Translations under genes and position numbers: made by a program
The notes under the pieces: generated by a model
What the model was told of the DNA's origin: nothing
The model's database searches: none
Seen by the model: only the letters and a program-made list of their open reading frames with translations
In this document: positions 1 through 448 of the stretch, piece after piece
Position numbering within the stretch: position 1 is the stretch's first letter
Layout of the letters: each line of letters starts with the position of its first letter
DNA from: Escherichia coli
GTDB lineage: Bacteria; Pseudomonadota; Gammaproteobacteria; Enterobacterales; Enterobacteriaceae
Direction: 5' to 3' (one strand)
Length of the DNA stretch: 448 nucleotides
Assembly: GCF_003334255.1 (NCBI RefSeq)
Contig: NZ_QOWU01000239.1

Positions 1-448
1 ACAATTTTCCGTTGTTCTCGTCAATGAACGCCGTTCTTTCTGCACCGGTCAGACTCTTCAGCTCTGCGTGATACTGCGCAACCTCTGTCATCCGGTCGTA
101 CATCTTCTGCTGGTCAGCATACGGCATCACCTCACCTGAAATTTTCCCCAGGAAGGGCACCTGCTGCTCCGGTATATCAATACCATTCAGCGATTTCACC
201 GCCGCATCCGTGGTTTTGGAAATGAAGCGCCCTGTCCCTCCGGAGATATAGTCCACCCAGTATTTCAGCGATTCCGGTGTGATATCCACCGCGCCGGGAC
301 GGTACTGGCTGCCACCTGAGAACGCATTCAGCCAGGATGCAAACGCCTTGTACGCTTCTGGCGTTGAACGTCTTCCCAGCTGGCTGTCAGGTTTTGGTGT
401 ACCAAACGGCATGTTCTCCTGGTAAATCTGCGCCCCCATGAAGTTTTC
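1..448 (-). CDS. Internal fragment of a protein-coding gene, partial at both ends (149 complete codons; frame set by codon 448-446, last complete codon 4-2). Product unknown: hypothetical soluble protein.
   Basis: Seen in sequence: a single minus-strand frame is open across the entire window, while the other two minus frames and all three plus frames contain stop codons (e.g. plus-strand TGA at 25-27, 69-71 and 137-139). Third-position GC is enriched over the overall ~54% GC. Codon usage is enterobacterial-like (CTG dominant for Leu; CCG, GCG and CAG frequent). Neither a start nor a stop can be placed within the window. Product identity was not recognised; no homology search could be run. Confidence 0.85.

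Follow-up and report, generated by a model that had tools for sequence, protein, structure and literature searches.

A 448-nt window of an Escherichia coli Shiga toxin prophage maps to a predicted autonomous C-terminal module of giant LPD38-containing virion proteins

The window analysed here, a stretch of 448 nucleotides (nt; GC 53.6%) on contig NZ_QOWU01000239.1 of Escherichia coli, is an internal fragment of the last late gene of a 933W/phi24B-type Shiga toxin (Stx) prophage, which encodes a giant 'polyvalent' virion protein. Judged from sequence comparison, it lies in a strictly C-terminal, apparently autonomous module of about 900 residues (amino acids (aa) ~1887-2792), upstream of which the domains differ from protein to protein. 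Matches at 100% identity were found in the chromosome of E. coli 2015C-3121 (NZ_CP027340.1), in three other strains and in phage GER2. In NZ_CP027340.1 the window spans L001:12001-12448 in our locus numbering, within a coding sequence (CDS) at 4261-12639 (8,379 nt, 2,792 aa, WP_062863647.1, 'LPD38 domain-containing protein'), and its translation is found at residues 2581-2729. The features of the window are as follows.

2..448, minus strand: 149 complete codons, residues 2581-2729 of the 2,792-aa giant 'polyvalent' virion protein (six-frame translation, 100% nt identity, PHROG 616, ratio of non-synonymous to synonymous substitution rates (dN/dS))
1, minus strand: first base of codon 2730
149..448, minus strand: C-terminal half of Pfam LPD38, residues 2581-2680 (PF18857 model 95-189 of 189, E = 2.1e-21)
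2..148, minus strand: start of the C-terminal helical bundle after LPD38, residues 2681-2729, with predicted helices at ~2690-2712 and ~2716-2729; the bundle runs on past the window to residue ~2789
35..193, minus strand: codons of tryptic peptides SLNGIDIPEQQVPFLGK, ISGEVMPYADQQK(MYDR), MYDRMTEVAQYHAELK and MTEVAQYHAELK(SLTGAER) (phi24B virion mass spectrometry, bioRxiv 10.64898/2026.04.10.717836, mapped to the translation)
227..262, minus strand: codons of tryptic peptide YWVDYISGGTGR (phi24B virion mass spectrometry, mapped to the translation)

The first-pass annotation of this DNA had described a 149-codon stop-free frame on the minus strand as the only open one of six, and six-frame translation bears this out: the frame read from base 448 (448 to 2) holds 149 sense codons and no stop, and the remaining five contain 3, 3, 4, 5 and 8 stops. 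GC content by codon position in the open frame is 0.54, 0.43 and 0.64. The chance of about 0.1% that had been attached to the frame holds for a given single frame (0.086% from minus-strand base composition) but not for any of six, since shuffling left at least one frame open in 1.6% of cases when mononucleotides were shuffled and in 4.9% when dinucleotides were preserved; composition alone is thus suggestive, not decisive, and weaker than had been stated. A chance open reading frame (ORF) is ruled out by homology, dN/dS and virion proteomics. Neither strand of the window gave an Rfam match at E ≤ 1 that would indicate an RNA element, and the antisense ORFs near the window are mechanical ones only, of 55-87 aa. 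The gene had also been predicted to extend past both edges of the window, which we confirmed in the 100%-identical genome, where the ORF continues past window base 448 for 7,740 nt upstream and past base 1 for 191 nt. Of the two possibilities offered for its start, the one upstream of position 448 is correct, and the internal ATGs are not starts.

No known family had been recognised in the peptide, but one exists: the window peptide matches Pfam LPD38 (PF18857) with E = 2.1e-21 and 77 bits, model positions 95-189 of 189 aligning to window residues 1-100, and PGAP names the protein after this domain. The whole protein belongs to the LPD38 family (E = 1.2e-48, 166 bits, model 2-189) and is a full-length member of PHROG 616 (function unassigned), in which the window covers positions 2582-2730 of 2793 (E = 1e-100). 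NCBIfam yielded no family on the window and, on the whole protein, only CLCA_X, below cut-off. The observation that the peptide has no Walker A motif, hydrophobic stretch or catalytic signature stands: the window is free of Walker A and HExxH motifs, and no transmembrane segment was found either there or in the whole protein (maximum 19-residue Kyte-Doolittle hydropathy means of 0.29 and 1.38, respectively).

The window frame is under purifying selection. Comparison of its codons with those of an E. coli phage-like replicon (95.8% nt identity) gave a dN/dS of 0.08, and comparison with 933W one of 0.22; with a Salmonella prophage, synonymous change has reached saturation (proportion of synonymous differences, pS, 0.76) and the corresponding non-synonymous value, pN, is 0.20. 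The four alignments contain no indels, over 149 codons for these three relatives and over 147 for Vibrio phage 1.205.O, which has 35% aa identity. It is hard to credit, on this evidence, that the gene in the source genome is a decaying prophage remnant whose open frame is a relic. Such decay would agree with a source known from 448 bases, with the frameshift-split copy in the Salmonella prophage (2,253 + 475 aa) and with the short LPD38 fragments in the protein database that are encoded on long chromosomal contigs. Set against it are the CDS, intact at 8,379 nt in every inspected genome with 100% identity to the window, the absence of stops from the 149 codons, and the mostly synonymous nature of the differences from relatives.

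The same gene encodes gp47 of phi24B and ST933Wp72 of 933W (NP_049532.1), the window residues being 98% identical to those of 933W. The phi24B protein (2,811 aa; LPD5, LPD1, LPD38, MuF-C) is abundant in purified virions and its authors propose it as an encapsidated ejection protein (bioRxiv 10.64898/2026.04.10.717836). In the supplementary tables of that preprint, its peptide counts (10,962) are second only to those of the major capsid protein (MCP; 17,998) and are highest in the first four listed gel fractions, which we read as the highest-molecular-weight slices. The phi24B peptide list holds YWVDYISGGTGR, SLNGIDIPEQQVPFLGK, ISGEVMPYADQQK, MTEVAQYHAELK (231 spectra) and MTEVAQYHAELKSLTGAER, all exact in the window translation. 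Among the peptides that we looked up, eight match it exactly, namely five tryptic peptides and three missed-cleavage forms, at window nt 227-262 and 35-193. Because virion peptides of phi24B match the translation exactly, the window frame is translated and the C-terminal region of the protein is present in virions. The first-pass annotation had suggested that matches to phage structural or injection proteins would mean a mobile element, and this proved to be the case: the gene belongs to a prophage, its product to the polyvalent class, and the near-identical gp47 is abundant in virions.

The giant gene closes the 933W/phi24B-type short-tailed prophage and is followed by chromosomal yfdC, with a gap of 221 nt (L001:12640-12860) between its stop and yfdC; ARAGORN found no tRNA at this prophage-chromosome junction (L001 positions 12500-14200). 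Of 5,426 complete E. coli genomes, 424 have at least one place that matches the window at ≥90% identity, and the 186 phage records that match it are all of Stx-converting or related Escherichia/Shigella phages, including 933W, VT2-Sakai, Min27, P13374 and Stx2-phage 86. The giant 'LPD5/LPD38 domain-containing' protein of the Sepvirinae Stx phages has the same last-late-gene place, upstream five-gene cassette and Pfam architecture; length differs, with 2,792 aa in 2015C-3121, 2,811 in phi24B and 2,806 in 933W. A last-gene layout is likewise seen in Vibrio, Burkholderia and Bacillus phages.

Along the whole protein, the following domains and motifs were located.

Residues ~1050-1199: LPD5 (Pfam)
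Residues ~1360-1439: LPD1 (Pfam)
Residues 1181-1436: sub-threshold NCBIfam CLCA_X, overlapping the end of LPD5 and all of LPD1
Residues 1283-1287: HEWFH motif (HExxH)
Residues 1550-1554: HEIIH motif (HExxH)
Residues ~1749-1838: MuF_C (Pfam)
Residues ~2475-2680: LPD38 (Pfam)

The protein thus resembles the polyvalent proteins of Iyer et al. (PMC5512222), which are likewise large multidomain phage proteins of virion-gene neighbourhoods with LPD5, LPD1, MuF_C and LPD38: a single polypeptide of 2,792 aa combines these four domains with two HExxH motifs, and its prophage gene adjoins virion genes as the last of the late operon, downstream of the tail genes and the five-gene cassette. Iyer et al. 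(2017) list LPD38 as one of 40 uncharacterised domains and see polyvalent proteins as carriers of effectors. The phi24B preprint calls MuF-C the metallopeptidase domain (bioRxiv 10.64898/2026.04.10.717836); this assignment of the peptidase may be misplaced, because the HExxH motifs sit in or just after the LPD5/LPD1 region, outside MuF_C.

Pairwise comparison indicated that the region shared with distant relatives is far larger than Pfam LPD38, extending over residues ~1887-2792. With residues 2401-2792 as the query, we aligned 31 homologues, down to 26% identity, which end 0-6 residues from the C terminus of the query, barring a few truncated fragments. The profile of this alignment matched 19,545 representative clusters at E ≤ 1e-3 (6,912 at E ≤ 1e-30), and the best 150 of the 19,545 matches, in proteins of 458-5,181 aa, all end at most 21 residues from the end of the protein. 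Residues 1887-2790 of the Stx phage protein align to 2230-3129 of gp20 of Vibrio phage 1.205.O (3,130 aa) at 41% identity, and residues 1893-2783 align to 3619-4514 of gp69 of Burkholderia phage JC1 (4,515 aa) at 27% identity, this being the only region that the Stx and JC1 proteins have in common; taken together, the Stx, Vibrio and JC1 giants have only, or mainly, these C-terminal ~900 aa in common. Among representatives 2,000 aa or longer, 104 of 104 cover Stx residues ~1900-2792 in the alignment, against an average of only 0-39 for any 100-residue bin upstream. The same boundary is found in proteins that consist of little else: P0096 (1,042 aa) aligns over 138-1040 to Stx residues 1887-2787, P0164 (1,152 aa) over 261-1146 to 1877-2785, and P0135 and P0100 share this boundary. 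P0096 and P0164, on metagenomic phage contigs (L010:10001-13129 and L011:10001-13459), are encoded by complete genes that close a same-strand gene block, and a separate gene upstream specifies a 3,616-aa protein similar to Stx residues 1459-1693 in the former and an 889-aa InPase protein in the latter. Several of the short stand-alone proteins have the N-terminal motif MSxxxCIKxxxxLxxEDAARV in common.

Phage records containing the module number 346 and comprise Stx, Escherichia, Shigella, Vibrio, Ralstonia and Burkholderia phages, Bacillus megaterium Pageviruses and the metagenome-derived 'Methanosarcina virus MetMV'. Gp20 of Bacillus phage Palmer, a Gram-positive podovirus (1,678 aa, Pagevirus; L013:6265-11301), has a diverged copy at ~668-1671, ending at 1671/1678; its gene stands between that of a lytic tail protein (NlpC/P60, SLT) and the holin gene, and is the last before the lysis genes. 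In MetMV (MK170447.1, L012:5581-14589), a 3,002-aa protein contains the module at 28% identity, ending at 3000/3002; this genome was derived from metagenomes and its host assignment is not experimental. Together, these comparisons point to LPD38 as the most conserved core of a module of about 900 residues that is sharply bounded and always C-terminal, that also occurs on its own, and for which we found no solved structural relative; this goes beyond the published descriptions that we found, LPD38 being a single domain in Iyer et al. and here a Pfam domain of ~200 residues within the larger C-terminal module.

As a separate observation, the giant gene of the Salmonella prophage (L006:3198-11428, Logan SRR7343883) is split by a frameshift into ORFs of 2,253 aa (LPD5, LPD1, MuF_C) and 475 aa (LPD38), with the break, in the numbering of the E. 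coli protein, between residues 2301 and 2317. Records of the 475-aa product comprise 4 contigs and 27 member sequences. The interruption may reflect a pseudogene, a mistake in assembly or a genuine split.

The comparison with JC1 bears on another possible identity of the Stx phage protein, that of a DarB-like antirestriction protein, with a role in methylating or protecting the DNA that is injected. The 'DarB-like' giants of the Bcep22/JC1 group (Lessievirus) have the module end to end, with LPD38 at residues 4195-4401 of the 4515 of JC1 gp69, followed by a tail of ~110 residues. The PHROG family phrog_10089, 'DarB-like antirestriction', matches residues 2353-2680 of the Stx protein, and JC1 gp69, BcepIL02 and Ralstonia phage proteins annotated as 'DarB-like' have the C-terminal module in common with it. 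The similarity is, however, confined to that module (1893-2783 against JC1 3619-4514). The methylase and helicase domains of JC1 lie upstream, in the variable cargo, and Pfam and NCBIfam detected neither a methyltransferase nor a helicase domain in the 2,792 aa, so that the combination of an N6-adenine methyltransferase with an SF2 helicase is absent. An antirestriction role is therefore very improbable, and we reject the 'DarB-like antirestriction' label for the Stx protein as stemming from the cargo of other family members.

JC1 gp69 is virion-associated by mass spectrometry, with 51 unique peptides (JC1 paper), so that packaging in virions is published for two proteins of the family, phi24B gp47 (including peptides of the window region) and JC1 gp69. 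In JC1, the gene closes the morphogenesis block, and the nozzle protein is of the 933W type. The portal, MCP and head-closure proteins of this phage were described as homologous to those of 933W (JC1 paper), and we confirmed the head-closure/nozzle match at 30% identity. The cargo differs: JC1 has a lytic transglycosylase, methylase, helicase and LPD3, and the Stx phages have LPD5/LPD1/HExxH and MuF_C. In Vibrio phage 1.205.O, identity to 933W is 49% for TerL, 47.5% for the portal, 49% for the MCP and 36% for the nozzle/'head-closure' protein; the 41% of its module lies within the range of its virion proteins, whereas the cargo is largely unrelated.

Directly upstream of the giant gene, Vibrio phage 1.205.O, the Salmonella prophage and the Stx phages all have a cassette of five small genes (about 400, 650, 450, 250 and 1,270-1,330 nt).

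L001:1089-4176: five-gene cassette
L004:9051-12188: five-gene cassette
L003:2181-5125: five-gene cassette
L006:31-3123: five-gene cassette

The families of the cassette genes themselves, phrog_594-611, are functionally unassigned in PHROGs, and the sole named match is a weak one of the 218-aa protein to the 'virion structural protein' phrog_8003 (E = 1.2e-8). Three cassette products of phi24B, gp48, gp50 and gp51, were detected in virions (bioRxiv 10.64898/2026.04.10.717836), and we consider the cassette proteins to be candidate partner ejection proteins. Some records label the 83-aa cassette protein 'bacteriocin', a name that seems to have been carried over. Upstream of the cassette, E. coli 2015C-3121 has a YadA-like adhesin gene (L001:1-953) where 933W and AU5Stx1 have lom (L002:1-618, L004:7887-8621), a swap of accessory (moron) genes.

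Four records that were deposited as non-mobilizable E. coli 'plasmids' also carry the giant gene, at 96-98% identity: CP043018.1, NZ_CP044141.1 and NZ_CP133131.1, of 50-63 kb, and NZ_CP124742.1, a 212-kb record of EDL933 with the gene at two places. The 50-63-kb 'plasmids' match a whole Stx-type phage genome in size and may therefore be circular phage genomes or assembly products.

The C-terminal module is predicted to fold as a unit. AlphaFold2 modelled residues 2401-2792 with a predicted local distance difference test score (pLDDT) of 78 and a predicted template modelling score (pTM) of 0.62, and the 906 residues from 1887 to 2792 with a pLDDT of 81.5 and a pTM of 0.76. Helices dominate the longer model, which also contains a small beta-rich insert (~2134-2191) and ends in a four-helix region. 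The conserved loops of the window, at pLDDT 56-88 in the short construct, reach 76-89 in the long one, which fits a packing of these loops against the upstream part of the module. No fold relative of either model was found in the PDB, and PDB sequence searches with the single protein and with the profiles of alignments A1 and A2 gave nothing significant, the best matches (vinculin tail and YmcA/RicA, E 0.1-0.7) being helical-bundle noise. In A1 and A2, the invariant or near-invariant residues of LPD38 within the window are G2585, P2600, S2602, T2609, N2621, G2625, G2626, G2632, D2635, P2638, G2650, P2678 and F2679, and the conserved Gly, Pro and Asn among them fit a structural or packing role better than catalysis.

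We propose that the module is probably the constant part that gets these proteins into the procapsid and out again through the portal and tail, possibly as part of a conduit, with variable cargo attached. According to this model, drawn from the sequence comparisons together with the published virion data, the ~300-kDa 'polyvalent' protein is packaged inside the capsid, as shown for the near-identical phi24B gp47, and it would be the C-terminal module that gets the polypeptide built into the procapsid. On infection, the protein would leave by way of the portal and tail, either before the DNA or together with it, possibly adding to an ejection conduit, and the variable upstream domains, whether fused or separately encoded, would ride along as cargo for delivery into the host. 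This cargo would consist of LPD5/LPD1 with a HExxH zincin-like motif and MuF_C in the Stx phages, and of the DarB-like methylase/helicase in those of Burkholderia and Ralstonia. We favour a role in incorporation and ejection because of the dominance of Gly, Pro and Asn in the window, the co-variation of the module with core virion proteins and its occurrence in podoviruses of both Gram-negative and Gram-positive hosts.

Two observations count against this role. Gp47 is absent from the cryo-EM density maps of phi24B (bioRxiv 10.64898/2026.04.10.717836), and invariant polar residues upstream of LPD38 in alignment A2, namely H1974-A-x-E-R-N1979, N2237/R2240/D2241, N2357/E2361/N2362/R2365 and K2387, could equally mark an active site. 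The module might then itself be an enzyme or effector that acts after injection on a host target (envelope, nucleic acid or defence system) rather than a structural part, a reading that we think unlikely but that draws on more than these many invariant polar and charged positions: several LPD domains are potentially enzymatic and polyvalent proteins are seen as effector carriers (Iyer et al., 2017, PMC5512222). A protein with LPD38 as its only domain, PTXU04_00025 of phage PTXU04 (2,198 aa), was needed for efficient infection in a CRISPRi-ART screen, and this knock-down phenotype, which we count in favour of incorporation and ejection, is also compatible with an essential enzyme. LPD38 is not, however, among the domains named as potentially enzymatic (Iyer et al., 2017, PMC5512222), Gly, Pro and Asn make up most of the conserved positions in the Pfam LPD38 core and in the window, and the structure searches returned no enzyme-fold match. 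The strict C-terminal place, the co-variation with portal and capsid proteins and the spread over podoviruses of Gram-negative and Gram-positive hosts likewise suit a part of the virion machine better than a host-specific effector.

An ejection role would make the module a functional analogue of N4 vRNAP gp50, T7 gp16 and P22 gp7/gp16/gp20, which are capsid-internal and released through the tail at infection. The likeness ends there: sequence, profile and structure searches detected no similarity of the module to T7 gp14-16, P22 gp7/16/20 or N4 gp50-52, and it is not a member of the T7, P22 or N4 ejection-protein families. A review of ejection proteins (PMC8954989) does not mention the 933W-type and Bcep22-type giants. 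It is conceivable, and we put this forward more tentatively than the role itself, that the module represents an unrecognised ejection/packaging part of 933W-like and other short-tailed phages of Gram-negative and Gram-positive hosts, and possibly of a Methanosarcina virus, with cargo either fused to it or supplied in trans.

The ORF in the window is in itself ordinary, an annotated gene that is present in every 933W-type Stx phage examined, and the finding as given is already known, since the gene, its Pfam domain (PMC5512222) and its location in virions (phi24B preprint) have been described. In the phages by which Shiga toxin genes are spread, the giant gene nevertheless makes up ~14% of the genome, and the window covers the most conserved part of its product, for which there is no solved structural relative. 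A strictly C-terminal module with fused or separate cargo offers a concrete hypothesis for how a 300-kDa protein may be loaded and injected. If it is correct, LPD38 would mark a core ejection protein of a very large group of phages (19,545 representative clusters) that are without ejection proteins of the T7, P22 or N4 type, and engineered protein cargo could be delivered by means of the module. Should the host of MetMV truly be an archaeon, the module would work independently of the bacterial envelope.
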